Assembly: GCA_022072055.1 (NCBI GenBank)
Contig: JAJVIK010000007.1
Location: 513,442-577,441, forward strand
DNA: 64,000 bases
DNA from: a bacterium
Lineage (GTDB): Bacteria > Hinthialibacterota > Hinthialibacteria > OLB16
Direction of reading: 5' to 3'
This document shows, piece after piece, positions 17,061-64,000 of this stretch (position 1 is the first letter of the stretch; the number at the start of each line of letters is the position of its first letter). The position numbers and the translations under genes are program-made. The notes beneath the pieces were generated by a model. It ran no database searches and was not told where the DNA came from. It saw only the letters and a program-made list of their open reading frames with translations.

Positions 17061-17228
17061 GCGGAGTCCAACTCCGCGGTCCGGTTCCGCCCAGGAGTCC
17101 AACTCCTGGGCGAGCGGAGGGTTAGAGCATTTCTCACTCGGATGTCGTGTTGGAGGGGCGCGGTCCCTCGCGTCCGGACACGACAGAGCTACGGGGGCGT
17201 CCGGACACGACAGAGCGTGTCCCTCCTG
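17061..17228. repeat. Mosaic GC-rich palindromic repeat, copy B1 (two TCCAA-loop hairpins, TTAGAGC module, GGACACG hairpins)
   Basis: Fills the convergent gap between rhamnosidase and rhaT; homologous to segments at 40720-40772, 53925-54020 (inverted) and 60552-60637. Confidence 0.6.
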
Positions 17229-40485: not shown

Positions 40486-40722
40486 AATTTCCGGCAAGAG
40501 GCCACGATCATACGGGAACTTGAGATTAGGAAAAACGAGATCGAGAAGCTGTGCACGAAGCATTCTGTCCGACGCCTGGAAGTATTTGGCTCCTCGGTGG
40601 AAGGCCGGTTTGACCCCGAGGCCAGTGACCTAGTAGTCTTGGATTCCCGCTTTCGCGGGAATGACGAATATCAGGGACTCCTTCAAGAGCTCGCGCGTCT
40701 TCTGCAGTCATCTTCGCCGTAG
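40486..40722 (+). pseudogene. Remnant of an MNT-type nucleotidyltransferase (HepT/MNT antitoxin family), no start codon, C-terminus replaced by repeats
   Basis: Open frame encoding IRKNEIEKLCTKHSVRRLEVFGSSVEGRFDPEASDLVVLD, then the repeat-encoded DSRFRGNDE; absent from the ORF track. Confidence 0.55.
40641..40669. repeat. Short palindromic element, family A copy 1 (GGATTCCCGCTTTCGCGGGAATGACGAAT)
   Basis: Perfect 7-bp-stem hairpin; identical 29-mer at 59506-59534. Confidence 0.6.
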
Positions 40723-40772
40723 AGCATCTCTCAACCCGAATGTAGCGTCGGAGGGACGCGCTCCGTCGCGTC
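40720..40772. repeat. Mosaic GC-rich palindromic repeat, copy B2 (TAGAGC module plus GGAGGGACGCG hairpin)
   Basis: Aligns with 17122-17175 and with the reverse complement of 53960-54020. Confidence 0.5.
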
Positions 40773-40849
40773 ATGTTGCCCCGGAAGACCCACCACGATT
40801 GGGCGTGGCCCTCCGAGGATTTGCAGGATATCATTAACCGCTCAAGTGA

Positions 40850-43082: not shown

Positions 43083-46000
43083 ATGAGAATCCGCCCATTC
43101 TCGCTCTTGGCGTTTCCTCCGTTGCTTTTTTGCCTCCTTGTGCCTGGGGCGCGAGCCGCCACGTTCACGGTCACCAACACGAACAACAGTGGGGCGGGAT
43201 CCCTGCGTCAGGCGATCCTGGAGGCCAACAGCGTGCTGCCTCCAGAAGCGGTGTTTATTCATTTTAACATTATCGGAATGTTCGTGTTCCCGATTATCAA
43301 TCCCTCTTCTCCGCTTCCCAACATCCTTCGTCCGGTCACCATCGATGGAACCACTCAGCCGACTTCCAACAACCGCGTGGCCATCCAAGGCATTAACGCG
43401 GGGGCCAACGCGGATGGTCTCCATTTCGGTCCCAACTCCGATGGCAGCGTGGTCCGCGGTCTGGTTATCAACAGTTGGAGCGATGACGGCATCGAGCTTG
43501 AGCAGAGCGATGGCACGGTGGTGGCCAGGAATTGGATCGGAGTCGATTTCGCCTTGGGGATGGTCGATCTGGGTAACGGCGCGGCTGGAGTTCATGTCAA
43601 TAATTCGTCCCACACAAGTATTGGTGGACTCACCGCCGCGGACCGAAACGTGATTTCAGGAAACAACGGAAACGGTGTATGGATCATTAATGGCTCCACT
43701 GGGACTCATGTGATCGGAAACTACATCGGAATTGGCGCTGATGGAGCCACCGCCGTCCGCAACACGAACACGGGGGTCCTTATTGCGGCCTGCTCCGACA
43801 ATTATGTCGGTGGTCCGACAGTCGGGGAAAGAAACATCATTTCCGGCAACGGAAACGGAGTGACTGTGCTGGGGGCCAACGCCAGGAACAATGTGATCCA
43901 AGGAAACTGGATTGGAACCAGCGCGAATGGTTCTGCCGACTTGGGGAATGTGGTGGATGGCGTTCGGATCGAATCGGCGCAAAACACGCTGATCGGAGGG
44001 GATGCATCGTTTGAAGGCAACCCGCCGGGGAATGTCATTTCGGGAAACGACATGGCGGGAGTCCACATTCTGGGGGCAAGCCGCACCTTCATCCAGGGAA
44101 ACGCCATCGGGAAGGATGGCAGCGTGGTGGTCGCGATCCCCAACGGAGGGGATGGAGTTCTCGTTGAAGCCGAGACGCTGGGAGCATGGCCCCGACACAC
44201 GGTCATCGGCGGCAGGGGAGGACTCGGCAACGACATCTCACACAATCAGCTGAGCGGGATCGCGATCGAGGATGGAACCGGTGTGCTGATCCAAGGAAAC
44301 AGCCTCTCCGGGAACGGCCAATATGGCGTACGCCTTCGTAGCGACGACAATGTCGTGGGCGGCCCCAGCCCCGAGGACGGCAACGTGATCGCCTTCAACG
44401 GCCGAAGCGGAGTCTATGTAAACGCATCGAGTGGAAATTTGATCGGCGGGGCCACCGAGGAAAGCGGGACCTTCATCTTTGGGAATCAGGAACATGGCGT
44501 CCTGATCAGCGGTCTCACTGGAGAGAACAATCGGATCGAGGGGTGCAATATCGGACGCACCGTGGGGGGGGGCGCATCGGGAAACCTCCGAAACGGCGTC
44601 CGAATCAGCATGTCAAGCAACAACATCGTGGGGGGAACGGAGCCCCACAAGGCCAACGTCATTGTCGCCAACCAGGAGGGGGGCGTGGCGATTCTCAGTG
44701 AGCTCACCCACGGCAACCGAGTTCAAGGAAACGGGATCGGGGTCAGCCTCGAGATTGTAAACAAAGGGACCTACTCCAACTCTGTTGGGGTGTTGATCGA
44801 TGGCGCCAAGAACAACCTGATCGGCGGAACCGAGCCGGGCGCGAGGAATCTGATCTCAGGTAATGACGGGGATGGCATCCTTCTTCGCAACTCCGCCTCA
44901 AACAACCGCATTCAAGGCAACCTGATCGGCCTCGCGGGGGATGGAGTCTTCGGTGTCGGCAATGGCGCAGCGGGGATCGAAATCCTGAATTCCCCCAACA
45001 ACCTCATCGGCGGCACCATGCCCGGCGCGCGCAATGTGATCGCGGACAACAGCGACGGCATCTTTATCCTCGGAGGAGCCCTCTCCGCGAACAATGTCAT
45101 CCGGGGGAATTACATTGGGACCGATGTCTCCGGCGCGCTGGCTCGAGGGAATCATGTTAACGGGGTCTTCGCCCAAGCGGCGGAATTTGTGGTCGGCGGG
45201 ACCGAACCGGGCGCCGGAAATCTGATTTCCGCGAACAGGCTGCGAGGAGTGTTTCTCTCCAGCTTCGATTCCACTCACTGCCGGGTCCAAGGCAATCGGA
45301 TCGGAACCGACGCCTCCGGCATGGCCGCGCTGGGGAATGGAGGCGACGGGGCCCTCCTGGAGAGCACGATCCAGTGCGCCATCGGCGGAACCGCGCCGGG
45401 CGCGGGCAACCTCATCTCCGGGAATGGCGGGAATGGTGTCTGGCTGGTCACCGGAGCAAGCGGAAATGTTGTCGCGGGCAACTTCATCGGCACGAATATC
45501 ACTGGGGACACAAGTCTCGGGAACGGCCAGAGCGCGGTCCTTATCGAGGACGCCCAATTGAACCGGATCGGGGGAAACCAGCCCGGCGCCGCCAACATCC
45601 TCTCCGGCACCAACCAATATGGGGTCCACATCAATCATCCGCTGGCCAAGGAGAATCGCATCGAGGGCAACTTCATCGGGACCGACATCACGGGCTCATT
45701 GCCCCTCGGCAACAGGTTCGGCGGAGTGTTGATTGTGGACGCCTCGGACAACTATATCGGCGGGACAACACCCGGCGCGGGGAACTTGATCTCCGGAAAC
45801 GGAGGCTCCGGCATCCGCCTGTTCAAGACCATGAACACCCCCGGAAGAACCTTCATTCAGGGCAATCGGATCGGAACCGACGTCACCGGAGTGTTGCCGC
45901 TGGGGAACATGAGTCGAGGCGTCGACCTTTCCGCGACAGTCGGAGTGGAGATCGGAGGGATCACCGAGGGCGCGCGAAACCTGATCTCCGGGAACGGGTT

Positions 46001-47342
46001 CTCCGGAATTCTGTTCCACGATGAGGCGCGCGAAACCCTGGTCCAGGGGAATTTCATCGGGACCGACATCACCGGGCTTCTGCCGGTTCCGAATGGTCTT
46101 GATGGGGTCTTCATCGAAAACGCCCCAAGCAATCTGGTCGGAGGCGCCACTCCCGGCGCGGGAAACCTGATCTCCGGGAACGCCCGCTATGGCGTCTATC
46201 TCCTCGATAGCAAGGCGGTCGGGAACCGTGTCCAGGGGAATCGCATCGGCACGGATCTCACCGGTTCCTCGGATATCGGCAACGCCTCGGCGGGGATGTA
46301 CATCAAAGCCGCGACCGGCAATGCTCTAGGCGGAACCGGAGCGGGCGAGGGGAATCAAATCGCCTTTAACCTCGCCGGGGTGACCATCCTTTCCGGCTCG
46401 ATGAACCCCATCCTCTCCAACTCGATCTTCTCCAATGATGGCCTTGGAATCGATCTTGGCGAGGACGGAGTCACCGCCAACGACGAGATCGACTCCGACA
46501 CCGGCGCGAACGATTTCCAAAACTATCCGATCCTCACCGACGCTCGAATCGCCGAGGCCCAACCGGACAACATCCTGTCGATCACAGGAACCCTGCACAG
46601 CGCCACAGCCACGGAGTTCCTGCTTCAGTTCTTCGCAAGCGAGATCTGCGATGCTTCCGGTTTCGGTGAAGGAAGGGTCTTCATCGGTTCGGCCACTGTT
46701 GTGACCAACGCCTCCGGAGACGTCACATTCACATTCGATTTTCCCATCCAACTTACTGGAGCTCTCCAGCTCACCTCAACCGCCACGGACCCCATCGGCA
46801 ACAGCTCGGAGTTCTCCCAGTGCCTGGAGGTGGTCGGCATTCCGACCCCCACTCCGACCGCGAGCGCCACGCTCACCCCCACCTCGACCCCATCGCCGAG
46901 CGCCTCGCCCACGGAGACCGCGACAGACACGCCAAGCGCCTCTCCGACTCAATCGTCCTCTCCCTCGGCGACCTTCACCGGGCAACCGACCGTCACCGCG
47001 AGCGCAACCCCCTCGGCGACCGCCACGGGACAGCCAACATCCACGCCGACCGCGACCTCCTCATCCGCTCCGAGCGCAACTCCCACTCCCACAACCACGG
47101 GTAGCCTACCGGCGACGTCAACTCCCACTCCCACCACGACCGGCAGCCAAGCGGCCACCCCCACGGCCACTTCCACCTGCGCGCCGGACTACAACCTGGA
47201 TGGGCTGGGGGCGATCGACGCGCGGGACCTTCTGCAGCTCCTCGCCGCGATCCGCTCAGGCGACCCCCAAGCGGACTTCAATTGCGATGGCGCGGTGGAT
47301 GGGGATGATCTGCTCGAGTTCAGTGGGAGGTGGAAGGAATAG
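43083..47342 (+). CDS. Giant secreted right-handed parallel beta-helix repeat protein with Pro/Thr-rich linker and C-terminal dockerin-like domain
   Basis: Signal peptide; tens of PbH1-like repeats (NxIxGNxIGxxxxG); dockerin-like Ca-binding loops DYNLDGLGAIDARDL and DFNCDGAVDGDDL. Confidence 0.8.
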   Translation: MRIRPFSLLAFPPLLFCLLVPGARAATFTVTNTNNSGAGSLRQAILEANSVLPPEAVFIHFNIIGMFVFPIINPSSPLPNILRPVTIDGTTQPTSNNRVAIQGINAGANADGLHFGPNSDGSVVRGLVINSWSDDGIELEQSDGTVVARNWIGVDFALGMVDLGNGAAGVHVNNSSHTSIGGLTAADRNVISGNNGNGVWIINGSTGTHVIGNYIGIGADGATAVRNTNTGVLIAACSDNYVGGPTVGERNIISGNGNGVTVLGANARNNVIQGNWIGTSANGSADLGNVVDGVRIESAQNTLIGGDASFEGNPPGNVISGNDMAGVHILGASRTFIQGNAIGKDGSVVVAIPNGGDGVLVEAETLGAWPRHTVIGGRGGLGNDISHNQLSGIAIEDGTGVLIQGNSLSGNGQYGVRLRSDDNVVGGPSPEDGNVIAFNGRSGVYVNASSGNLIGGATEESGTFIFGNQEHGVLISGLTGENNRIEGCNIGRTVGGGASGNLRNGVRISMSSNNIVGGTEPHKANVIVANQEGGVAILSELTHGNRVQGNGIGVSLEIVNKGTYSNSVGVLIDGAKNNLIGGTEPGARNLISGNDGDGILLRNSASNNRIQGNLIGLAGDGVFGVGNGAAGIEILNSPNNLIGGTMPGARNVIADNSDGIFILGGALSANNVIRGNYIGTDVSGALARGNHVNGVFAQAAEFVVGGTEPGAGNLISANRLRGVFLSSFDSTHCRVQGNRIGTDASGMAALGNGGDGALLESTIQCAIGGTAPGAGNLISGNGGNGVWLVTGASGNVVAGNFIGTNITGDTSLGNGQSAVLIEDAQLNRIGGNQPGAANILSGTNQYGVHINHPLAKENRIEGNFIGTDITGSLPLGNRFGGVLIVDASDNYIGGTTPGAGNLISGNGGSGIRLFKTMNTPGRTFIQGNRIGTDVTGVLPLGNMSRGVDLSATVGVEIGGITEGARNLISGNGFSGILFHDEARETLVQGNFIGTDITGLLPVPNGLDGVFIENAPSNLVGGATPGAGNLISGNARYGVYLLDSKAVGNRVQGNRIGTDLTGSSDIGNASAGMYIKAATGNALGGTGAGEGNQIAFNLAGVTILSGSMNPILSNSIFSNDGLGIDLGEDGVTANDEIDSDTGANDFQNYPILTDARIAEAQPDNILSITGTLHSATATEFLLQFFASEICDASGFGEGRVFIGSATVVTNASGDVTFTFDFPIQLTGALQLTSTATDPIGNSSEFSQCLEVVGIPTPTPTASATLTPTSTPSPSASPTETATDTPSASPTQSSSPSATFTGQPTVTASATPSATATGQPTSTPTATSSSAPSATPTPTTTGSLPATSTPTPTTTGSQAATPTATSTCAPDYNLDGLGAIDARDLLQLLAAIRSGDPQADFNCDGAVDGDDLLEFSGRWKE
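46839..47177 (+). repeat. Low-complexity Pro/Thr/Ser-rich linker-coding repeat inside the beta-helix gene
   Basis: About 113 codons of T/P/S/A with a reiterated TPTPTTTGS unit. Confidence 0.6.
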
Positions 47343-47373: not shown

Positions 47374-47628
47374 TCAATAGTGGTACCTGCAGGCAATAAT
47401 GGTCAGTGTTTCACCCTCCACTTCATAAACGAGGCGGTGTTCACGGTCGATTCGCCTTGACCAACAATTCCTCAGCTGCCAACGAAGAGGCTCAGGTTTT
47501 CCGATTCCCTGGAATGGGTTTCGCTGGGTGTCTTTGATGAGCTCATTGACTCGCTTGAGCATCGCTTTGTCGGTCCGTTGCCAGTGGAGATAATCCTCCC
47601 AAGCCGCCTCCGTGAAGAGGATTCTCAA
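47374..47628 (-). CDS. yoeB: YoeB toxin (Txe/YoeB family mRNA interferase)
   Basis: Near-consensus YoeB sequence (WEDYLHWQRTDK...WSRRIDREHRLVYEVEGETLTIIACRYHY). Confidence 0.9.
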   Translation of the reverse strand: MRILFTEAAWEDYLHWQRTDKAMLKRVNELIKDTQRNPFQGIGKPEPLRWQLRNCWSRRIDREHRLVYEVEGETLTIIACRYHY

Positions 47629-47631
47629 ACT

Positions 47632-47889
47632 CTACTCCTCCTCCGCAAGTTGCCGCTCCTCAGCCTTTCCCGAGCGAGCATCGGCCAACGACTTCATCAA
47701 CCTCTCCTCATTCCTTGGACACCGCAACAGGTACGCCGTCTCCTCCATTGACTCGTAATCCGAAAGAGAAAGGAGTACGGCTGGCGGATGGCCTGAACGC
47801 GAAATGATCACCGGCTCGCAGTCCGCCTCGATACGATCCAGGACGGTCGTGAGGTTCTTCTCGAACTCCGCAAGAGATACAGTTTCCAT
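47632..47889 (-). CDS. yefM: YefM antitoxin (Phd/YefM family)
   Basis: 85-aa ORF 3 nt upstream of yoeB with Phd/YefM-like N-terminus (PVIISRSGHPPAVLLSLSDYESMEET). Confidence 0.85.
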   Translation of the reverse strand: METVSLAEFEKNLTTVLDRIEADCEPVIISRSGHPPAVLLSLSDYESMEETAYLLRCPRNEERLMKSLADARSGKAEERQLAEEE

Positions 47890-50285: not shown

Positions 50286-51839
50286 ATGGAAGAGATTCCG
50301 CCTCTCCGGTATCCTCCCCACATGCGCGAGCACCTGCGCCGCTACCGTTTACCGCTGGCTTTTCTAACCGCCGCGCTTGCCCTGGCGCTTCCTCCCAGCG
50401 ACCGGGAGTGGCTCACCAAGATGTATTACCCGATCCTCTTCGGAAGGTATTCGACCGCCCGTGTCGCCTGGATTCTTTCCCTCCTCTTGATGTCACTCAC
50501 CGCGCTCCTCCGCGCGGAAAGCCTCTTGCATTCGCTTCCGCGGGAACAGAGGTGGGCGCGGTTCCGGGTAAACCTGCTGATCCCCGCCTACACCCTCGCG
50601 GCGGCGTTCGGGATGGTGGAGTTCTACTTTCAGCACAACCCCTCCAGGGTTTCCGGTCGCCATGATGAAACCTGGGTGGAGTCCATCGTTTTCCAGAGAA
50701 TGGCGGAGCGGCCCAAGGATGAGGAATTGGGAATTCTCGGGACTCCCAACATGGAGAAGGACAATAGCGAACTCCTGGAGTATTCGGTCCCGCTGCTCTA
50801 CGCCCCCGCCGAATGGAACCGACTCCCCTTCCCGCGCGTCCGCTACAGGTCGGACTCGGACGGCTTCCGCAACGACACTCAAGTGAACCAGGCCGACCTG
50901 GTCGTGATCGGGGACTCCTTCACTCACGCTCCCATGATTGAGCGCTCCGAAATCTGGTCCTCGGTGCTGGCGAGCCGATTGGGAATCTCGGAACTCAACC
51001 TCGGAATCTGCGGGTATGGCCCGCAACAAGAGGCCCGGGCCCTGTGGCGATATGGAATCAAACGCGGGCCGAAGCTGGTCGTGATGCAGGTCTTCCTCGG
51101 AAATGATGTTCAAGACTCGCTTGTGTTCAAACGATGGAAGACCTCCGGAATGGGATATGTGGAATTCCAGCGCGAACAACATGGGGTCCGACCGATCGTG
51201 CCGACCTGGGTGTTCCTGGCCAACCTGGCGCGACAAGTCCTTCCGGCGCCCGGGAAAGAGAAATGGGACAAGACCCCCGGCTGGTTTCGTCCCGTGGAGC
51301 TCCAATTGCGGGACAGGAGAATCCCCGTGGGATTCGACCCCGACCTAAGGCGCCTCCTCCGCTCCGAGAGAGAGTGGTCCCGAAGCGAGGGGCTGGACAC
51401 CCTCATCCTGTCGATCATGGAGGCGCGCGCCATCACCACCCGCGCGCGAGCGAAATTCGCGGTGATGCTCATCCCCACGAAAACCAGGGTCCTGTACGAC
51501 TTCATCGCGGACCAGGAAAACCGCTCGCGTTTCTACACGCAACAGGCCACCTTCCTGTCCGACTTCGATCCGGACGAACTGGAGCGCCTCCACCTGGAAA
51601 ACAGGGACTCGCAGGCGACTGTCCTCGGCGAATTCCTGGATCGCCAGCGAGTCGCGCGCTTTGATTTCACCCAACCCTTTGTGGATCGAACTCGAACGGA
51701 CGGGGAACTGCTTTACTACGCGCTGGATGCCCATTGGACCCCCGAGGGGCATCGGTTCGCGGGTGAGACTCTCGCTCAGTGGGTCCGGGATCGAGGGCTT
51801 CTTCCCGCCGAGGGGACCCCGTTTGCCGGACCCCACTGA
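50286..51839 (+). CDS. Membrane-anchored SGNH-like DHHW-motif protein (AlgJ/AlgX-like putative O-acetylation protein)
   Basis: N-terminal TM segments; GDSFTH and DAHW motifs. Confidence 0.6.
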   Translation: MEEIPPLRYPPHMREHLRRYRLPLAFLTAALALALPPSDREWLTKMYYPILFGRYSTARVAWILSLLLMSLTALLRAESLLHSLPREQRWARFRVNLLIPAYTLAAAFGMVEFYFQHNPSRVSGRHDETWVESIVFQRMAERPKDEELGILGTPNMEKDNSELLEYSVPLLYAPAEWNRLPFPRVRYRSDSDGFRNDTQVNQADLVVIGDSFTHAPMIERSEIWSSVLASRLGISELNLGICGYGPQQEARALWRYGIKRGPKLVVMQVFLGNDVQDSLVFKRWKTSGMGYVEFQREQHGVRPIVPTWVFLANLARQVLPAPGKEKWDKTPGWFRPVELQLRDRRIPVGFDPDLRRLLRSEREWSRSEGLDTLILSIMEARAITTRARAKFAVMLIPTKTRVLYDFIADQENRSRFYTQQATFLSDFDPDELERLHLENRDSQATVLGEFLDRQRVARFDFTQPFVDRTRTDGELLYYALDAHWTPEGHRFAGETLAQWVRDRGLLPAEGTPFAGPH

Positions 51840-53924: not shown

Positions 53925-54020
53925 CTGGAGGGACACGCTCCGTCGTGTCCGGGCGCGAGGGGCCAAGGGACGCGACGGAGCGCGTCCCTCCAACGCAACA
54001 TCCGAGTGAGATAGGCTCTA
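53925..54020. repeat. Mosaic GC-rich palindromic repeat, copy B3 (inverted orientation; long imperfect hairpin)
   Basis: Reverse complement aligns with 17122-17225; about 24-bp stem pairing GGAGGGACACGCTCCGTCGTGTCC with GGGACGCGACGGAGCGCGTCCCTCC. Confidence 0.6.
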
Positions 54021-54030
54021 AGTTGGGGTG

Positions 54031-55311
54031 TCAGTTCCCGACCGGATCGAGCAGAAACGCGCGGTATTTCCCGTTAATCGTTCCCTCTCCCACAATCTGG
54101 CCCTTGTTGTTGATGTCCTTCGCGATCAAAAGGACCCAGCCTTTCCCATCCACAAGCTGGTTGGTCAGATCATAGAGCGCTCCATCTTTCCACAGGACCG
54201 CGGAGCTTTTCGCGCCGATCCGGTCACTGATCTGGTTCCAGAGTTGACGGACCCAGCGGAACTGCTTGAATCTGTTGTAGAACTTTTGCGCGAGGGGAAT
54301 GTCGATTCCGTCCCCGACAATTTCACCTCGATCATTGAGGGCGAGCGGCCGACAACTCTCGAAAGACTTCATCGCAAGGAAAGCATGGGTTCCGTTGTCC
54401 CAGAGGAAAGGTTCGTATTCGTCAAAATCTCCACCGGTGGGGAAAGCCCCCGCCACTTGACCGCGCTGGTTTAAGGCCGCCGCCGAGCTGCCCTTCATGC
54501 CGCTTAGATGAATGTCCCGCATCCCTTTGTCCGGAGTCCAAACAAAGGCGTGCTGCTCGCCGCTTGCGGTGGAGCCGTATCCGGCGATCCAGCCGGAGGA
54601 GTTTACCGCGGCAGGGTGGACAACGGGGCCTCCGAGATCACCCAAGTCCTCAAAACCACATTCCGAGGTCCATCGGAAGAGGCGTCGATAGGGCCGAGGG
54701 GGCGCCCTTTTCGGACCCTCCATGTCCTGCGCGGCCACCACGAAGGCTCCTCCCGATCCGAAAAGAACGTCCTCGATGGAGGTGAATCCCGTGATGGAAA
54801 GAACAACCTCCTCGGCTGAGGCAGACCGGATGAGGTGAATTCTCTTTGGCTGTCTCAGCGGCGCGCCCGCGCCATACACTCCGAAGGCGCCGCCATAGAC
54901 CGAAGGACCACCCGGCGTGAACTCCTCCACAGTTTCCACAACGAGGATTCTCCCGAGGGGGTCGATTTCGACCGCTGTTCCCGTGGTCCCCTGGGAGAGG
55001 CCCAGGTCTTTCATTCCCGATTCTCTTGTCCACAGAAAGGGATGGGTGACGAAGGGTGGAACAAACTGTTGCATGTTGCCGGGAGACGAATCTTTGGGGC
55101 GCGGAACCGCGGCGCTCCCGACCACCTCGCCTCGATCATTGATGGCCACGGCACGCACTTGCGCGTGCTTGGAGAGAACCCCCAGATCGGTGATGCGATA
55201 ACGAGGTCCCGAGGGCCAGGCCAACAACCACCACAAGAAAAGCGCCCCGAATGCAAAGACCGCCGCCTGGAGGAACGTCTTACGCTGGGTTATTGATTTC
55301 CCCTCAGCCAT
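54031..55311 (-). CDS. HAF-repeat family extracellular/anchored protein, paralog 1
   Basis: N-terminal hydrophobic anchor, PSGPRYRITDLG, HAF-like repeats (INDRGEVVG, QHAFVWTP), C-terminal GKYRAFLLDPV. Confidence 0.7.
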   Translation of the reverse strand: MAEGKSITQRKTFLQAAVFAFGALFLWWLLAWPSGPRYRITDLGVLSKHAQVRAVAINDRGEVVGSAAVPRPKDSSPGNMQQFVPPFVTHPFLWTRESGMKDLGLSQGTTGTAVEIDPLGRILVVETVEEFTPGGPSVYGGAFGVYGAGAPLRQPKRIHLIRSASAEEVVLSITGFTSIEDVLFGSGGAFVVAAQDMEGPKRAPPRPYRRLFRWTSECGFEDLGDLGGPVVHPAAVNSSGWIAGYGSTASGEQHAFVWTPDKGMRDIHLSGMKGSSAAALNQRGQVAGAFPTGGDFDEYEPFLWDNGTHAFLAMKSFESCRPLALNDRGEIVGDGIDIPLAQKFYNRFKQFRWVRQLWNQISDRIGAKSSAVLWKDGALYDLTNQLVDGKGWVLLIAKDINNKGQIVGEGTINGKYRAFLLDPVGN

Positions 55312-55347
55312 GATCCAAGGCCCTGTATTTCGGGATAAACGGTTCCT

Positions 55348-55740
55348 CTATATCACTTGAACACACGGTCCTGAATCGAGCCGCGACGCTCTCCTGGCGA
55401 ACCCTCGGTCGAAGGTGGCGAACGCCTCGGAACACGAGCTGCTTCCCCAGTGAAGCGCGTCGGCAAAATCAATCCCCCGTTCATAGGCCTCCAGCGCGGA
55501 CACGACCGCGATGGGGTCTTCCAGCACAACCTGAGAAAGCCCGCAGAGCCTTCTGAACGATTCGAGGATCACCGTTCTCGGCAGCTCGTAAGTGTATCGG
55601 AGCACCCATTCGCACTCGAGGAGGACTGTCTTCGGGATGTGGATGGAATTGGCTTCAAAGAGCTCAGTCGCTCGGCGCGCCTGCGCGGGATCATCCCGTG
55701 TCAGGAGGCGAACCAGAATGTTGGTATCGACCGAGATCAT
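55348..55740 (-). CDS. vapC: PIN-domain toxin VapC
   Basis: MISVDTNILVRLL start; 4-nt overlap with the upstream antitoxin gene. Confidence 0.75.
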   Translation of the reverse strand: MISVDTNILVRLLTRDDPAQARRATELFEANSIHIPKTVLLECEWVLRYTYELPRTVILESFRRLCGLSQVVLEDPIAVVSALEAYERGIDFADALHWGSSSCSEAFATFDRGFARRASRLDSGPCVQVI

Positions 55741-55988
55741 CTTTGTCTCGACACACCCTTGCGGATCGCGCCCTCCATTTCGGCGAGCGACTTGCGCGCT
55801 CCGGTGTAGCCCGTGCAGCCGATCACTTCGCGGAGCGTGGTGGCGGGGAAAGGTTGGGTGGGGCGAAGCAGGACCCCCCCGGAGTGCTCCTCCACCAGGA
55901 ATTCGACCCCCGGGCCCCATCCGTGACTTACCCGGATGGCCTTGGGGATGATGATCTGCCCCTTGCTGGAGAGTCGCGTGGTTTCCAT
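55737..55988 (-). CDS. vapB: AbrB/MazE/SpoVT-type antitoxin VapB
   Basis: SpoVT/AbrB swapped-hairpin signature (SSKGQIIIPKAIRVSHG). Confidence 0.75.
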   Translation of the reverse strand: METTRLSSKGQIIIPKAIRVSHGWGPGVEFLVEEHSGGVLLRPTQPFPATTLREVIGCTGYTGARKSLAEMEGAIRKGVSRQR

Positions 55989-56062
55989 GTTCCCCCTCCT
56001 TGGTAAGATTACGGTAAGATGATCCTACCGGCGGCGGACAGTTCGGTCAATGCGAAGAGAAG

Positions 56063-57316
56063 TCACTCCACCGGGTCAAGCAGGAACGAGCGCGTGTTTC
56101 CCTGGAAGGTCCCCTCGCCCACAATCTGTCCCTTGTTGTTGATGTGCCTGGCGGACCAAAGGACCCAGTCGTCCCCGTCCACAAGCTGGTTGTTCAGATC
56201 ATATAACTCCCCATCCTTCCACAGGAGCGCGGAAGCCCTCTCCTCGAGCCAGTTCTCGCCCCAGTCTTCGAGCCAAGGGACAGCCCAGGCGGCCCAAGGT
56301 CGCTGCATGAGCGCTGTCAAAATCCTCTGGGTGGCGGGACGGTACGATCCGCCCCCGACTATCTCTCCAGGATCGTTGATATCTTGGGCCTCGCAACGTT
56401 CGAAATGCTCCACGGGGAGCGGGGTGTAGGTTTCCTTCTCCCAGAGGAAGGGTTTCGACCCACCCCACCCGCCGCGTGACCAGGAAAATCCCACGACCTG
56501 ACCTCGGTTGTTCAACCCCTGTGCGTGGCTGATCCGCTCGTCGGTCGGATGGATGTCCCGCATCCCTTGAACCGGAGTCCAGATAAACGCGTGCTGTTCC
56601 CTGCTCGCCGTGAGGGCATATCCGGCAATCCAACCGTTTTCGTTCGCCGATTCTGGAATGACTTGGTTGCCCCCCAAGTTCCCGAGACTTTCATATCCCT
56701 TCTCCGCGCTCCACCGAAGAAGGTCTTCAGACTGGGTCCCCACCGTGGTCAGGCCGCTCGCCGGCATCAGCAGGGTCTCATTCGGTCCGAGGGCGACCTG
56801 ACCCAAGGAGATGGCGCGAGTTTCGGTCAGGATGATGTGCGCGCCGGTGGCCGAATGGATCACATAGGTGCGCTTTATGGGTTGTGGTCGGGGAGTCCCA
56901 TAACCTCCCGGCCCACCGTAAGGTTGCACGGCGGATGGGGAGAGGTCTTGATGGTGCTCAACGACCAGAATCCGGCCGCGTTCGTCAATGTCCCGGGCGG
57001 AGCCGGAATTGCCCTCCAAGAGGCCGAGGTCCCTTATCCCCGACTCGCGGGTCCAGAGAAAGGGGTGTGTGACATAACTCCGGCGTCGTCCCCCCTCGGA
57101 AGGGGTGGCGGATTCAACCGGAAGGGGAACCGCCATGCCGCCAACCACCTCGCCACGCTCATTGAGGTCGGCCACTTGATCCGCCACCCTGCTCGCCCCG
57201 ATTTGGAGGTCGGTGATGCGATAGCGGGGACCGGAGGGCGGAGATGAAAGGAGCAGGAGGGCAAGCGCGCCGAGGGCGACAATGGCTGAAAGGAGGAACG
57301 CGATTCGCTTCGGCAT
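56063..57316 (-). CDS. HAF-repeat family extracellular/anchored protein, paralog 2
   Basis: Same architecture as 54031-55311 (PSGPRYRITDL, HPFLWTRESGIRDLG, QHAFIWTP, C-terminal RSFLLDPVE). Confidence 0.7.
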   Translation of the reverse strand: MPKRIAFLLSAIVALGALALLLLSSPPSGPRYRITDLQIGASRVADQVADLNERGEVVGGMAVPLPVESATPSEGGRRRSYVTHPFLWTRESGIRDLGLLEGNSGSARDIDERGRILVVEHHQDLSPSAVQPYGGPGGYGTPRPQPIKRTYVIHSATGAHIILTETRAISLGQVALGPNETLLMPASGLTTVGTQSEDLLRWSAEKGYESLGNLGGNQVIPESANENGWIAGYALTASREQHAFIWTPVQGMRDIHPTDERISHAQGLNNRGQVVGFSWSRGGWGGSKPFLWEKETYTPLPVEHFERCEAQDINDPGEIVGGGSYRPATQRILTALMQRPWAAWAVPWLEDWGENWLEERASALLWKDGELYDLNNQLVDGDDWVLWSARHINNKGQIVGEGTFQGNTRSFLLDPVE

Positions 57317-57356
57317 TCGAGCAGCTCACGCTCCAGCAAAACGAATGAAGGCGATG

Positions 57357-57545
57357 TTAGTCCTTGGTCGCCATGGGGGCGCCGGGGTGAACAATCCGCT
57401 CGGGATGTTCACGCTCCGCCTCGCGGAGTTTCTCGCAGAATGTGTGCAGATCAGACCCGGCCTCCCTGAAAAGGTCCGCCCCGGCCCGGCGAGTCTCCTC
57501 CACAATAGGGTCATCCCACGTGTAAACCTCATCGTTGGGCATCAT
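57357..57545 (-). CDS. Small acidic hypothetical ORF downstream of the disrupted PIN gene
   Basis: About 62 aa (MMPNDEVYTWDDPIVEETRRAGADLFREAGSDLHTFCEKLREAEREHPERIV); start uncertain. Confidence 0.25.
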   Translation of the reverse strand: MMPNDEVYTWDDPIVEETRRAGADLFREAGSDLHTFCEKLREAEREHPERIVHPGAPMATKD

Positions 57546-58033
57546 CAAGCAGTTCCTCCGGTGTACAGATCGTCGGTGTTGAGAATCCTTCTCTTTGGTT
57601 AATTTGCCGCACTCGACGGCGAATATGACCGTTGGCGATATGCCTGCAGTTCCATGTTGCCAGAAACATCGTGCCCCAAACAGAGGCAGGGGCAATGTGA
57701 AGGGCATCACGCGCGGCATCCGTGGGCAGGTCAGATTTCCTCGAGATAGACACTGGCCAGCCGCTCCACTTCGGCGGACACATGGAGTTCTGAAAACCCG
57801 CGCAGCGAGGCCAGTCGCTTTCTCGCCGCATCCTGGTCACCGCGTGACGCCTCGGCCAGGACTACCTCGGATATGAAGACCTCGTACCCCGGAAGCGCCT
57901 CCTTCCACCACCGACGAGTGATCTCTTGGTGGGCCAGAACAAGGATGTCCCTCGACGAGCGGGCTTCGAGATAGCCGACAACTGAAGTTTCGAGGTACAG
58001 GCGTGGCTTATCAGCCATTATCGATGGTTCCAC
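57529..58033 (-). pseudogene. PIN-like nuclease gene split by an apparent frameshift near 57731-57745
   Basis: N-terminal part (RLYLETSVV...YEVFISEVV) ends at stop 57731; C-terminal part (DALHIAPA...FLATWNCRHIANG) continues in another frame. Confidence 0.5.
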
Positions 58034-58059
58034 CTTTCATCTGCGTCATACTTGGAGGA

Positions 58060-58437
58060 TCACTCGACCGGGTCAAGAATGAACCCCGCGTCTTTCCCCT
58101 TGTACTTTCCCACGCCGATGATCTGGCCGTTGTCGTTAATGTCGTTCACACCCTTCGCGTTTCCCTCTTGGCCCACCGCAAAACCGAGATTCTTCATTCC
58201 GCTTTCGTGAGTCCACAGGAAGGGGTGAGTAATCTCATCCGTGCCGGACTCGACCCCGTAGTGGCCGACCACAACCCCATCGCTATTGATGCTGGTCGGC
58301 CAGATCTCGCCATCCCCCAATTGCTCCAGCTCCGTGATCCGATACCTCGGCCCTTCCGGCGCCCGCCGAAGGTAATAGAACGAGGCAAGGGCGGCGGACA
58401 GGAGAACAAGGATGAGGAGGAGATTTCGCTTGGGCAT
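58060..58437 (-). CDS. HAF-repeat family protein, short paralog 3
   Basis: About 125 aa from MPKRNLLLILVLLSAALA; keeps the N-terminal PEGPRYRITEL, one repeat and C-terminal GFILDPVE. Confidence 0.6.
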   Translation of the reverse strand: MPKRNLLLILVLLSAALASFYYLRRAPEGPRYRITELEQLGDGEIWPTSINSDGVVVGHYGVESGTDEITHPFLWTHESGMKNLGFAVGQEGNAKGVNDINDNGQIIGVGKYKGKDAGFILDPVE

Positions 58438-58459
58438 CGGAATTCCTCGTTGCACAACC

Positions 58460-60241
58460 TCAATTCGCCGCTTCTCCCAGCCCGGACCGCCCCTGTCCCT
58501 GCTCCAGGACCCAATCGCGGATGAACTGCGGTGGGAGCTGGTGCAGCGAGAAAAGCCGCTCCCCGCGATAGGCCACTGTGGCCAGCGCCGGGAGCTCCGC
58601 CAAGACCTTCCGCGCCGCCGGATGAAGGTCGCTATAGCGGCTCCCGATGCACGCGAAGACCTGAAGGCCGGGATTGGCGAGCTCCGCCGAGAGCTCGAAC
58701 CGAAACACTTGCAGCCCCTCCGGAATCGCGGGCCAGCCCTCCGGGCCCTCGCGATAGACCGCAGCCGCTCCGCCCTCCAGCAGCAGCACATCCCCCGGAC
58801 GCGCGAGTTCCTGCAGTTTCGGATTGAGCCGATGCATCGAAACCCCCAGGTAATCCAGATCAAACCCCAAGTGTTTCGCCCCGGAGGGCCCGCCGATCAA
58901 GGGCGTGTAGTAGATCAAGTTGTGCGGGTAAACGCGCAGAGATGGAAACAACACAGCCGTCCCCAATGCGGCGAACAGGCTCCACCGAATCGGGCCGGAG
59001 AAACCGGGGTTCCACCGCGACAAGGCCCAACGCCAACCCTCGCGCAGCTCCATCGCGGCGAGCGCACACATCGGGCCATAGGCCGGCAGCAGCAAGCGGA
59101 CCCCATCGAACTTGGGCACGCTCGGAATCGAACTGATCGCGAGCGGCAAGGCGAACGCCACCCACAGCAAACCTTCCTCGCTTCCCCAACCGATCTCGCG
59201 TGTTCGGAACAGGCGCGCGAGTTTCCGAAGCGCGCGCACCGCCACGGGAACCACCAGAAGTGGCGGGAGCGCGAGGGCCGTGAACACCCACGGGTAATGC
59301 CAGGGGGCAAGATTCCAGTGGTTGTAAACGACTCCGAAATAATAGACCGGGATCTTCAGGTGGTTTCCGATGAAGTCGGCGTACTCCTTTATCCCCTTGG
59401 GGAAATCCAGCCACAACGCGGGCCAGAGCAGAAAGGCCGCGAGCAGCGCAAGGAGAGAGAGGAGAAGCGCCATGAGCGCTTCCCTGAGGCTCCGTCGGAG
59501 CGGCTCGCCGCTCCTGGATTCCCGCTTTCGCGGGAATGACGAATCTTCAAGGGGCAGGGATTCCTCATTGTTCCCGCCGCGCCCGTCATCCCCGCGAAAG
59601 CGGGGATCCACGCCCATCGCGGCAAGCTGTGTGGAGAGCACCCAGAACCCAAGGAGTGCGACCAGGTACATCCCCTGCACCTTGGTGAGCAGCGCGAGCA
59701 CAAACAGGACCAGCGCCACGACCTTCCACGCATGGCTTCTGTTCCAGCCCATGAGCGCGAGCGTGGCAAGGCCATACAGCGCGCCAATCAGCCCATCGAT
59801 TCCGAATCGAACCCCATGCAGCACAAAGCGCGGGCTGCCCAGGAACAGCAGCGCCGCAATCAATCCCGCCTTTCGGCCCATCCGCGACGCGAGAAAGGCA
59901 TACGAGGCCGCGCACCAGATTGAGGTGACCAAGGCCACAAACACACGACACGACCCAAGCTCGCCAAGGCTTCGTCGAAACAGGGCGTTGCAGAATCCGC
60001 CCCCGATTTCCATCAGCGGCGGGTGGCGGTGCGCGTCGGGGAAGTACGCGCGCGGCTCGAAAAGACTCGGGGCCGATTCAGCGGTCCACCAGGACTCCAG
60101 CCAGCGACTCCAAGGGACCGCGCGGTTGTAGAACAGCCAGGAATCCCAGTAGGGTCCGAACCCAGGACTGAGTAGGATGAGTCCCCAGAGGATGATGGCG
60201 CCAAGGAGAGTGGCCTCAAGGCCAAGCCGACTTCGGATCAT
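58460..60241 (-). CDS. Polytopic membrane glycosyltransferase, GT39/PMT-ArnT-like, carrying a repeat-encoded hydrophilic insertion
   Basis: 593 aa, many TM helices N-terminally and a soluble C-terminal domain; family assignment from architecture only. Confidence 0.55.
   Translation of the reverse strand: MIRSRLGLEATLLGAIILWGLILLSPGFGPYWDSWLFYNRAVPWSRWLESWWTAESAPSLFEPRAYFPDAHRHPPLMEIGGGFCNALFRRSLGELGSCRVFVALVTSIWCAASYAFLASRMGRKAGLIAALLFLGSPRFVLHGVRFGIDGLIGALYGLATLALMGWNRSHAWKVVALVLFVLALLTKVQGMYLVALLGFWVLSTQLAAMGVDPRFRGDDGRGGNNEESLPLEDSSFPRKRESRSGEPLRRSLREALMALLLSLLALLAAFLLWPALWLDFPKGIKEYADFIGNHLKIPVYYFGVVYNHWNLAPWHYPWVFTALALPPLLVVPVAVRALRKLARLFRTREIGWGSEEGLLWVAFALPLAISSIPSVPKFDGVRLLLPAYGPMCALAAMELREGWRWALSRWNPGFSGPIRWSLFAALGTAVLFPSLRVYPHNLIYYTPLIGGPSGAKHLGFDLDYLGVSMHRLNPKLQELARPGDVLLLEGGAAAVYREGPEGWPAIPEGLQVFRFELSAELANPGLQVFACIGSRYSDLHPAARKVLAELPALATVAYRGERLFSLHQLPPQFIRDWVLEQGQGRSGLGEAAN
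59506..59599. repeat. Family A composite palindromic element (29-mer plus inverted partner CGTCATCCCCGCGAAAGCGGGGATCC) inside the glycosyltransferase ORF
   Basis: Left arm identical to 40641-40669; right arm is its reverse complement with compensatory changes; translated in-frame as a loop. Confidence 0.6.
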
Positions 60242-60265: not shown

Positions 60266-60523
60266 CTACTTGATCTCCCGCCAGACCGCATCCTCGGCAT
60301 CTCGACTGGGAGGGATCGGTTTAGCCGTCCAGTAGATCCGCCAAGCCAGACCCACCAAGGCGAACCCTCCCAGGAAGCAGAACGCCGCGACCGCCACCGC
60401 GAGGATCAGAGGGAACAAGAGGATCAGGAGACCCAGGGCAAGGAGAAACAGGCCGCCCGAGAGGAACTTCCATGCAACCGCCCGCGACAGCGCCTCGCTG
60501 GATGTGAGATGGACAAACCGCAT
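60266..60523 (-). CDS. Small hypothetical membrane protein (two hydrophobic helices)
   Basis: 85-aa ORF with ATG at 60523. Confidence 0.4.
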   Translation of the reverse strand: MRFVHLTSSEALSRAVAWKFLSGGLFLLALGLLILLFPLILAVAVAAFCFLGGFALVGLAWRIYWTAKPIPPSRDAEDAVWREIK

Positions 60524-60551: not shown

Positions 60552-60637
60552 GTGAGTGCAACTCACCTTACCGGCTCCGCCCCGGAGTGCAACTCCCGGG
60601 CGAGCGTGGGGCCGCGACGGAGCGCGGCCCTCCTCAC
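60552..60637. repeat. Mosaic GC-rich palindromic repeat, copy B4 (two TGCAA-loop hairpins plus GGCCGCG hairpin)
   Basis: Aligns with 17061-17121; stems differ by compensatory substitutions while loops are conserved. Confidence 0.55.
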
Positions 60638-62678: not shown

Positions 62679-64000
62679 TTCTGATTTCCGCCTCGCTCAA
62701 GAACGGCACCGCGGTTGTCGTGGGGATCTTGCTGGTGATCCTGTCGGGGTACCTTGCGTTCACCCGAATTCCTATTCAGCTCAACCCGACCATCGATTCC
62801 CCGTTCATCACGGTCGAAACCCTCTACCCGGGGGCGTCCGCGCTGGAGGTCGAGCAGGAGATCACCAACCGGTTGGAGGAGAAGCTCGCGGCGGTGGAGA
62901 ACTTGCGCGAGATGCGCTCCAGCTCCCGCGAGGGGGTCTCCGAGGTCGTGCTCAAGTTCGATTGGGGGATCAACAAGGACCTCGCGCAACTCGATGTTCT
63001 CCAGAAGATCAACCTCGCGGAGGAGCTCCCCGAGGACGCCGAGGAGCCGCAGATTCTCACGGTCAACCGTCGCGAGCAGTCCACCGTGATGTGGCTGTTC
63101 CTTAAGACCAACTCCCTCGATGTCAACCAGCTTCGACGTCTCGCGGACGATGTCATCATCCCTCAGATCGAACGAGTGCCGGATGTCGAGACTGTGCGAC
63201 GGTTCGGGGGCGCCGAGCGCGAGATCCATGTGCTGGTGGACCTGGCCGCCATCGCCGCGCGCGACCTGGCGCTCAACGATGTCGCCCGCGCGCTCGCGCG
63301 CGAAAATCGCAATGTGCGCGGCGGCAATATCGACCGCGGCCCCTCGCGTCTGGTGGTCCGGACCCTGGGCCAATACGACCACCTCGAACAGATCCGGGAA
63401 ACCGCGGTCACCAACGGTCCGAACGGACCGGTCCGCATCCGCGACATCGGGGAGGTCAGGGACGCCAACGAGGATCTGGAGGTGTATGTCCGAGTCAACG
63501 GCCAGCCCACGATCTCGCTCGGAGTGGTGCAACGCATCGGCTCGAACACCCTCAAGATCGCGGAGGATGTGAAGAAGCTCCTTGAGCGGATGAACGAATC
63601 GCTCGCCTCGCGCGGGGTGGAGATCAAGGTCTCCTACGACTCCTCGGTGTACATCTGGGGGGCGATTGACCAATTGATCCGCAACCTCTTGGTGGGCGCG
63701 GCGCTCGCCACGATGATCCTGTGGTTCTTCCTGCGCTCGATGACCTCGACCCTGATCGTGGGACTGACCATTCCGATCTGCATGATGGCGACCTTTGTCT
63801 GCCTGATTGTGTTCGGGCGCTCGGTCAATGTGGTGTCGCTTGCGGGCTTGGCCTTCGCGGGCGGAATGATCGTGGACAACGGCATCGTGGTGGTGGAGAA
63901 CATCTATCGCCACCGCACCGAGCTGGGCAAGTCGATCCTGATCGCCGCGCGGGATGGAGCCCGCGAGGTCTGGGCGCCGATTGTGGCCTCGACTCTAACC
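62675..64000 (+). CDS. Efflux RND transporter permease subunit (AcrB/HAE1 family), 3'-partial at window end
   Basis: Open frame from ATG 62675 to window end; AcrB-like N-terminus (TM1, large periplasmic loop, GLAFAGGMIVDNGIVVVENI). Confidence 0.85.
   Translation, partial: MILISASLKNGTAVVVGILLVILSGYLAFTRIPIQLNPTIDSPFITVETLYPGASALEVEQEITNRLEEKLAAVENLREMRSSSREGVSEVVLKFDWGINKDLAQLDVLQKINLAEELPEDAEEPQILTVNRREQSTVMWLFLKTNSLDVNQLRRLADDVIIPQIERVPDVETVRRFGGAEREIHVLVDLAAIAARDLALNDVARALARENRNVRGGNIDRGPSRLVVRTLGQYDHLEQIRETAVTNGPNGPVRIRDIGEVRDANEDLEVYVRVNGQPTISLGVVQRIGSNTLKIAEDVKKLLERMNESLASRGVEIKVSYDSSVYIWGAIDQLIRNLLVGAALATMILWFFLRSMTSTLIVGLTIPICMMATFVCLIVFGRSVNVVSLAGLAFAGGMIVDNGIVVVENIYRHRTELGKSILIAARDGAREVWAPIVASTLT

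Follow-up and report, generated by a model that had tools for sequence, protein, structure and literature searches.

The 64-kb stretch of DNA analysed here (the window; part of contig JAJVIK010000007.1 of the bacterial assembly GCA_022072055.1) carries on its minus strand a compact run of genes in which a 593-aa polytopic glycosyltransferase is followed by three genes for HAF-repeat proteins, interleaved with toxin-antitoxin genes (Table 1). In the list of open reading frames (ORFs) the order is glycosyltransferase, HAF1, a frameshifted PIN gene with a 62-aa ORF, HAF2, vapBC and HAF3, with spacers of 22, 26, 40, 74 and 36 nucleotides (nt) along the run and a 4-nt overlap between vapB and vapC. 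Every gene listed in a first-pass annotation of this locus was thus recovered in its place, on the minus strand and with gaps of 22–74 nt. A short hydrophobic ORF of 85 residues probably opens the co-directional run. The cluster corresponds to locus tags GHCLOJNM_01759 to 01766, and those looked up (01759, 01761, 01762 and 01764–01766) are deposited as 'hypothetical protein'; HAF3 is 100% identical to MCG3197274.1 (GHCLOJNM_01759), located on a 646-kb contig.

Table 1. Features of the glycosyltransferase-HAF region (positions are those of the window).
Feature	Position	Strand	Remarks
Double GC-rich REP-like hairpin	53926–53992		Between the HAF3 end and the convergent aldolase/SDR gene; 25-nt arms, 92% complementary
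HAF3, 426 aa	54031–55311	-	HAF_rpt 81.8 bits
vapC, PIN toxin, 130 aa	55348–55740	-	PF01850 E 4.3e-10; start overlaps vapB stop by 4 nt
vapB, antitoxin, 83 aa, AbrB/MazE/SpoVT fold	55737–55988	-	PF04014 29 bits; TIGR01439 36.8 bits
HAF2, 417 aa	56063–57316	-	HAF_rpt 76.9 bits; N-terminal hydrophobic helix, then beta-propeller (predicted)
62-aa ORF	57357–57545	-	Inside the 57357–57719 ORF; overlaps the end of the frameshifted PIN gene by 17 nt
Frameshifted vapC-family PIN toxin gene	57529–58033	-	Overlapping frames 57731–58033 and 57529–57840
HAF1 (short allele, HAF1s), 125 aa, in-frame deletion	58060–58437	-	HAF_rpt 30 bits; 387 aa in the sister strain
Glycosyltransferase, polytopic, GT-C, C-terminal soluble domain of ~150 aa	58460–60241	-	PMT_2 superfamily, uncharacterised branch
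Palindromic element, 96 nt, in frame within a glycosyltransferase loop (~aa 212–244)	59515–59610		27-nt arms
Hydrophobic 85-aa ORF	60266–60523	-	From the ORF list; 24 nt upstream of the glycosyltransferase
Single copy of the same REP-like hairpin	60610–60633		Between the gcvH stop and the 85-aa ORF

An assembly artefact was considered as the source of the two most unusual features of the run, the short HAF1 and the PIN frameshift, and could be excluded, as both are reproduced in two independent Logan assemblies. Built from other sequencing runs (SRR10609168 and SRR10609163), these match the window at 100% identity over 58778–57872 and 58138–54382; the short HAF1 allele recurs in one contig (L028) and the PIN frameshift, at 100% identity, in the other (L029). 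Because these assemblies match the window exactly, neither feature is peculiar to this metagenome-assembled genome (MAG).

The predicted HAF1, HAF2 and HAF3 all score above the curated cutoff (22.65 bits) of the HAF_rpt model TIGR02913, which overlaps Pfam DUF3466, confirming them as three HAF-repeat paralogs. HAF2 and HAF3 are colinear, with 45% identity from end to end (tblastn E 1e-94 to 1e-105), while HAF1 shares 34–38% identity with either of them. No further HAF genes were found elsewhere in the window, and the closest homologs beyond this species are at most 32% identical. The tandem triplet contrasts with the other three contexts in which we located HAF homologs, each of which holds a single copy. 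The paralogs had been described as differing in repeat number; in fact the full-length ones (HAF2, HAF3 and the HAF1 of a sister strain introduced below) are colinear with ~7 repeats each, counted by eye as IN(D/N)xGxVVG motifs, and only the 125-aa gene, a deletion allele, departs from this pattern. Their common ends, PxGPRYRIT(D/E)L at the N-terminus and FLLDPVE at the C-terminus, are indeed present (the C-termini read FILDPVE, FLLDPVE and FLLDPVGN), but they fit a family-wide consensus (N-terminal Y..TDLG, C-terminal HAFLLTP) and form the beta-strands with which the predicted propeller begins and ends. Judged from the models, they are a property of the family and not cluster-specific anchoring signals.

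The AlphaFold model of HAF2 (predicted local distance difference test (pLDDT) 86, predicted template modelling score (pTM) 0.85) consists of a helix at residues 2–23 followed by an all-beta repeat domain built from ~40-aa tandem repeats. Its structural matches in Foldseek (E 1e-6 to 1e-5) are 6–7-bladed propellers, including Photorhabdus PLL/PHL lectins, Pizza, the sensor domain of PknD, propellers of S9 peptidases and TolB. The model thus predicts a beta-propeller fold, and all three genes share the terminal consensus and the above-cutoff score with the family at large. Some relatives carry a C-terminal PEP-CTERM signal; in contrast, PEP-CTERM (PF07589) was not matched in any of the three proteins, which stop right after the last HAF motif and have an N-terminal hydrophobic helix instead. 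Of the surface anchoring originally suggested for these proteins, this helix is the only anchor-like element, and tethering, if any, would proceed via the helix, whether as a signal anchor or as a signal peptide that is not cleaved. HAF2 and HAF3 additionally contain low-confidence Pro/Ser/Thr/Gly-rich loops (HAF2 residues ~65–80 and 125–150). The HAF-repeat family is large (>1,300 matches in this analysis), and a literature search for it returned essentially nothing.

The history of the array is best seen in a comparison with its nearest relative, a sister strain represented by contig L001 of the 'Candidatus Omnitrophica' MAG GCA_013360775.1. The two strains are 99.3% identical at the nucleotide level from the efflux genes through the glycosyltransferase and 97.1% identical from HAF2 into vapBC; all three structural differences fall between these two aligned blocks. 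The first concerns HAF1, which encodes 387 residues in L001 and 125 in the window, where 780 nt are missing. The window junction reads GTGAACGAC|ATTAACGAC, and the corresponding L001 sequences are, to the left, ...GTGAACGAC|GCGGG... and, to the right, ...GCGAACGAC|ATCAACGAC..., with a 7-nt microhomology (GAACGAC) at which the VND of an early repeat is fused to the IND of the last one. Since the near-identical L001 holds the full 387-aa form, the window allele is a 780-nt in-frame deletion. The second is a 763-nt insert between the glycosyltransferase and HAF1 in L001, where the window has 13 nt. This insert (L001 7131–7771) encodes a 79-aa ORF and a 134-aa PIN toxin resembling the tRNA(fMet)-specific VapC model, albeit below its cutoff (129 vs 140 bits), a vapBC-like pair absent from the window. 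The third is the interval from HAF1 to codon 22 of HAF2, which spans 811 nt in the window, with the frameshifted vapC and the 62-aa ORF, vs 82 nt in L001. The first 22 codons of HAF2 are replaced together with this module, and the breakpoint lies just upstream of the GPRYRITDL-coding segment, the longest DNA stretch common to the paralogs. Taken together, the 387-aa HAF1 of L001, the microhomology deletion and the toxin-antitoxin cassettes located in different spacers bear out the duplication and recombination proposed earlier.

Nucleotide divergence between the two strains is equally uneven. The genes gcvH, hlyD and the 85-aa ORF differ by 0–1 nt, and the glycosyltransferase by 21 nt (omega 0.38), confined to its 3' third. 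For HAF2 (dS 0.069, omega 0.41) 29 differences are crowded into the 119 nt of a single patch (56759–56877, residues ~147–186), compared to ~1.4% in the rest of the gene; the changes in this hypervariable patch mostly alter amino acids and fall where the propeller model is least confident. Gene conversion from a paralog and a diversity-generating retroelement were considered as its source; neither the window nor L001 holds a second copy of the patch, and reverse transcriptase was not searched for. A similar cluster of differences, 16 substitutions in 550 nt, marks the RND transporter gene at 62857–63405, although the flank around it hardly differs between the strains. Mosaic divergence is therefore not limited to the array; the pattern suggests that patchy recombination between strains may reach past it.

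The intact toxin-antitoxin pair follows the classical type II VapBC arrangement, an AbrB/MazE antitoxin gene and then a PIN toxin gene overlapping it by 4 nt. VapB matches MazE/AbrB models (PF04014 and TIGR01439) and VapC matches PIN, giving the bicistronic organisation expected of VapBC, as the first-pass annotation had it; the same 130-aa PIN gene is called in the Logan contig L029. The second toxin gene departs from this arrangement in being frameshifted and in having its small partner ORF downstream instead of upstream. The frameshifted gene gave nothing in PDB and NCBIfam and a sub-threshold match in Pfam. Joining its frames (168 aa) yields matches to 1875 proteins, the best being intact VapC/PIN proteins of 157–166 aa (50–64% identity, 92–96% coverage), which places it close to many annotated VapC toxins. 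Because the joined frames match intact VapC/PIN proteins nearly end to end, the frameshift is genuine, in agreement with the initial call of a frameshifted PIN gene accompanied by a small ORF. The latter, 62 aa in length, has no family match and is called as a gene in the same Logan contig (L029); from its position, it is presumed to encode the cognate partner of the frameshifted PIN protein. Toxin activity, both for vapBC and for the second, frameshifted toxin, is a predicted role. What distinguishes the locus from an ordinary VapBC operon is that its cassettes occupy different spacers in two near-identical strains. A complete YefM-YoeB pair is located 6 kb off the array (47374–47889; YoeB E 1e-39, Phd_YefM E 6e-24), pointing to toxin-antitoxin modules as frequent residents of this genome stretch. 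By eye only, two ORFs beside an orthologous glycosyltransferase gene (L003) also look PIN-type.

The glycosyltransferase had been designated GT39/PMT-like. Its predicted structure (pLDDT 79.6, pTM 0.81), with a polytopic helical module and a conserved acidic residue in the first extracytoplasmic loop, is that of a GT-C fold enzyme, and it does match PMT_2 (PF13231). The GT39 label, on the other hand, is based solely on this generic and borderline match (26.4 bits vs a cutoff of 26.1). PF02366 (PMT) was not matched at E <= 0.1, nor was the MIR domain; no NCBIfam model matched, those for ArnT included, and a family-profile search of PDB sequences returned 0 matches at E <= 10. In Foldseek, the best match is ArnT (E 4.6e-8); STT3, ALG9/12 and AftA come next, and Pmt1/2 is 26th and aligned over ~317 columns, i.e. 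only half of the length; PMTs are therefore not its closest structural neighbours. Unlike GT39 PMTs (yeast Pmt1/2/4 and actinobacterial Pmt), with which it shares only the generic PMT_2 match at threshold, the window enzyme has a C-terminal soluble domain in place of the loop-5 domain. PMTs transfer mannose to Ser/Thr of proteins; for the window enzyme, a protein acceptor would be hypothetical. The resemblance to ArnT (GT83, undecaprenyl-phosphate-L-Ara4N:lipid A transferase; PDB 5F15/5EZM) is likewise limited to 13–14% identity and template modelling (TM) scores of 0.44–0.49, and no arn-operon genes were recognised among the annotated ORFs flanking the gene. The top structural matches (ALG12, ArnT, PMT and AftA) all use polyprenyl-monophosphate sugars, which makes a donor of this type probable. 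As the predicted fold fits ALG12, ArnT and PMTs about equally well, the acceptor class (lipid, glycan or protein) cannot be read from it.

Three-component periplasmic glycosylation systems combine a GtrA flippase, a GtrB polyprenyl-phosphate sugar synthase and a GtrC-type GT-C enzyme. The window enzyme is comparable to the latter in being structurally closest to users of polyprenyl-monophosphate sugars, and one of its homologs (L002) has a GT2 gene nearby. However, neither a GtrA-like nor a GtrB-like gene was recognised beside the window enzyme, and the adjacent 85-aa ORF had no match in a Pfam search.

An exhaustive profile search yielded only a few full-length relatives of the glycosyltransferase at the level of 50%-identity clusters, and ~3,500 more distant proteins that match the membrane module only. 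Among ten of the distant relatives sampled, 8/10 match PMT_2 or PMT (PMT_2 scores of 27–46 bits) and 0/10 match NCBIfam. The close family comprises two paralog clades, and four genomes carry one member of each, including the genome of the window, whose second paralog is P0007 (GHCLOJNM_03757). Among the hits obtained here, this small two-paralog family is confined to Omnitrophota/OLB16-type ('Hinthialibacteria') or unclassified MAGs. The two clades reside in different surroundings. A divergent valyl-tRNA synthetase gene adjoins the clade-A orthologs of the window gene (L003, L004 and L007). LptD is encoded directly downstream of the other-clade paralog in three MAGs (L005 4667–5725, L009 1448–3877 and L011 852–3314), and a GH42-like gene overlaps the glycosyltransferase start in L013 (3820–5502) and lies directly upstream of it in L010 (2466–4148). 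Genes for GT2, GT4 and phosphomannomutase occur near the homologs in L002 and L013, the GT2 gene of L002 being two genes downstream. The LptD and GH42-like contexts of the other clade are hints of a role of the family in outer-envelope glycans.

The gene also carries an insertion of its own. A palindromic stretch (arms 93% complementary; RNA fold -63.8 kcal/mol, z = -4.27) adds ~31 residues (DPRFRGDDG...SSFPRKRESRSGEPL) to one loop of the protein, at a place where the model has pLDDT <50, and is missing from 13/13 aligned homologs. It is present in both strains, with the ORF intact, and an identical palindrome arm is found at 40641–40665 of the window. As a 'DSRLRGND' insert occupies this loop in one homolog (P0011) and a 'VILSEAKDL...' insert a different loop in another (P0012), the sequences suggest that small palindromic repeats may have repeatedly colonised the loops of this family in frame.

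A dedicated glycosylation module, as proposed in the first-pass annotation, would predict that glycosyltransferase and HAF genes travel together, and comparison with related loci argues against this. We examined 17 non-self glycosyltransferase loci (42–54% identity), 16 of them from a scan of genome and metagenome contigs with the glycosyltransferase alignment, plus L002. HAF genes were found at 0/17 of these loci, whether searched by tblastn with HAF queries or by a profile hidden Markov model of the family run on all stop-to-stop ORFs. They occur only in the window and in the near-identical L001, and the orthologous clade-A loci (L003, L004 and L007) are without them. Conversely, no Pfam match to PMT or PMT_2 was present among the called neighbours of HAF homologs at 4 loci (three distinct contexts). 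The linkage of GT39-like and HAF genes, to which the original proposal was tied, is therefore not conserved in related genomes, and the link between the enzyme and the propellers rests on adjacency in one species only. The 85-aa ORF is identical in L001 and several short Logan contigs, always with the glycosyltransferase next to it, and was not seen beside more distant glycosyltransferase homologs in a comparison limited to ORFs of at least 80 aa.

The boundaries of the run are marked by hairpins resembling repetitive extragenic palindromic (REP) elements. This family, GGGACGCG-ctccgt-CGCGTCCC, matches the window six times (6 positions, 4 sites; 0.01 expected); apart from the two sites of Table 1, which flank the cluster, it occurs at 17152–17226 and 40750–40773. 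The hairpins flank the run on both sides with none inside it, and may be terminators or repeat elements. The doublet beyond HAF3 is likely the end of the transcription unit and the single copy next to gcvH a plausible upstream boundary, and this placement is consistent with, albeit short of proof for, one unit from the 85-aa ORF to HAF3. A scan for promoter and terminator consensus sequences produced matches no more frequent than chance, including a promoter-like site (56050–56022) upstream of vapB, and a scan of the whole window against Rfam gave zero matches. The strongest ribosome-binding site of the run, with the Shine-Dalgarno sequence AAGGAGG, precedes vapB.

The annotated neighbours of the cluster are gcvH, an RND/HlyD efflux pair, an aldolase-SDR fusion, an M42 peptidase and an AlgX-like SGNH protein. 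The last of these, a 517-aa protein with weak matches to AlgX-like SGNH (polysaccharide acetyltransferase-type) families, is encoded on the opposite strand ~2 kb past the end of the array (50286–51839); an ORF upstream of the glycosyltransferase paralog in L005 has, by eye only, an N-terminus like that of this protein. A 1419-aa ORF with right-handed beta-helix/NosD-like repeats (43083–47342) is a candidate large secreted or surface protein.

Overall, we favor, with a probability of roughly 65%, the explanation that the locus is a species-specific tandem array of HAF genes that arose by local duplication downstream of a housekeeping-type GT-C enzyme, at a recombination-prone and dispensable spot. 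Under this scenario three paralogous HAF genes would have expanded directly downstream of the glycosyltransferase in an Omnitrophota/OLB16-like lineage. Each full-length product would place its ~7-bladed propeller, behind the N-terminal helix, toward the periplasm or the exterior, and the propeller would most plausibly be a ligand- or carbohydrate-binding module. PIN-type toxin-antitoxin cassettes have settled in the spacers of the array and one of them has decayed through a frameshift, while the in-frame deletion between repeats has cost one paralog five of them. Transcription would probably begin ahead of the 85-aa ORF and read through the genes lying between the two REP-like hairpins; vapBC may carry its own promoter. 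The glycosyltransferase itself would most likely transfer one sugar from a polyprenyl-phosphate carrier to a periplasmic acceptor, independently of the HAF proteins.

Several observations weigh against this explanation. The 22-nt gap and the common strand of the glycosyltransferase and HAF1 look operon-like, and both strains retain this co-directional order. The comparison draws on few loci, with no other genome of the genus, and only two of the orthologous loci (L003 and L007) provide >1.5 kb of downstream sequence. A recently evolved functional coupling is compatible with the missing conserved linkage. Moreover, the acceptor of the enzyme is not assignable from its predicted fold, and the Pro/Ser/Thr/Gly-rich loops of HAF2 and HAF3 could in principle be sites of O-glycans.

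One alternative is that the HAF and toxin-antitoxin genes arrived together as a mobile segment downstream of the glycosyltransferase, with the toxin-antitoxin genes acting as addiction modules. It would account for the position of the segment between REP-like palindromes, the strain-to-strain variation in toxin-antitoxin content, the <=32% identity of the nearest HAF homologs outside the species, and a G+C content that is slightly lower across 54–58 kb (0.590–0.607) than in the flanks (0.636–0.667). On the other hand, equally low G+C is found elsewhere in the window, the region shows neither an integrase or transposase nor a tRNA or direct-repeat boundary, and no attC core (GTTRRRY) is present in any spacer. 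The three paralogs being each other's closest relatives also argues for duplication in place over acquisition of a finished array, and we consider acquisition as an island unlikely. An integron cassette array was rejected, as the spacers contain neither the attC core nor attC-like inverted repeats and, at 22–74 nt, are too short.

A further alternative is the glycosylation module itself, in which a GT-C enzyme acting at the periplasmic face would glycosylate co-transcribed, tethered HAF propellers and duplication would yield variant glycoprotein surfaces. The operon-like spacing speaks for it. The 0/17 count, which includes the orthologous clade-A loci, the absence of PMT or PMT_2 proteins among the called neighbours of HAF homologs, the unmatched PF02366 and the low-ranking, half-length alignment to Pmt1/2 all speak against it, as does the 763-nt toxin-antitoxin insertion that separates the enzyme from HAF1 in L001. 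Such a module is therefore quite unlikely.

The coupling could also run through the product of the enzyme, if lectin-like HAF propellers bound an envelope glycan or a lipid-linked sugar made or modified by the GT-C enzyme. The best structural matches of HAF2, the seven-bladed Photorhabdus PLL/PHL lectins (E 1.4e-6 to 8e-6, TM 0.40–0.50), are in line with this possibility, and the LptD, GH42-like, GT4, GT2 and phosphomannomutase genes adjoining paralogs of the enzyme elsewhere suggest an envelope-glycan role. However, the TM-scores are modest, the non-lectin propellers (S9 peptidases, TolB and the sensor domain of PknD) match as well, and the conserved linkage of glycosyltransferase and HAF genes is missing here too, rendering this a rather improbable explanation. 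Equally improbable is a working unit recently formed in this species, in which the GT-C enzyme would add sugars to juxtamembrane or Pro/Ser/Thr-rich loops of the HAF proteins, or the propellers would read its glycan product, while repeat deletions, swaps of paralog 5' ends and the hypervariable patch of HAF2 would provide strain-level variation in a set of glycosylated envelope proteins and the toxin-antitoxin cassettes would hold the unit in place.

If the glycosyltransferase did serve the HAF proteins, it would be a new bacterial GT-C enzyme with dedicated protein substrates, and would provide the first functional handle on a large and nearly unstudied repeat family. The evidence points instead to ordinary genome plasticity at the HAF array: expansion of paralogs, toxin-antitoxin cassettes coming and going, and deletion between repeats, next to a glycosyltransferase that tolerates an in-frame palindromic insertion in one of its loops. 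The public 'hypothetical protein' and 'GT39' labels of these genes can be made more precise on this basis.

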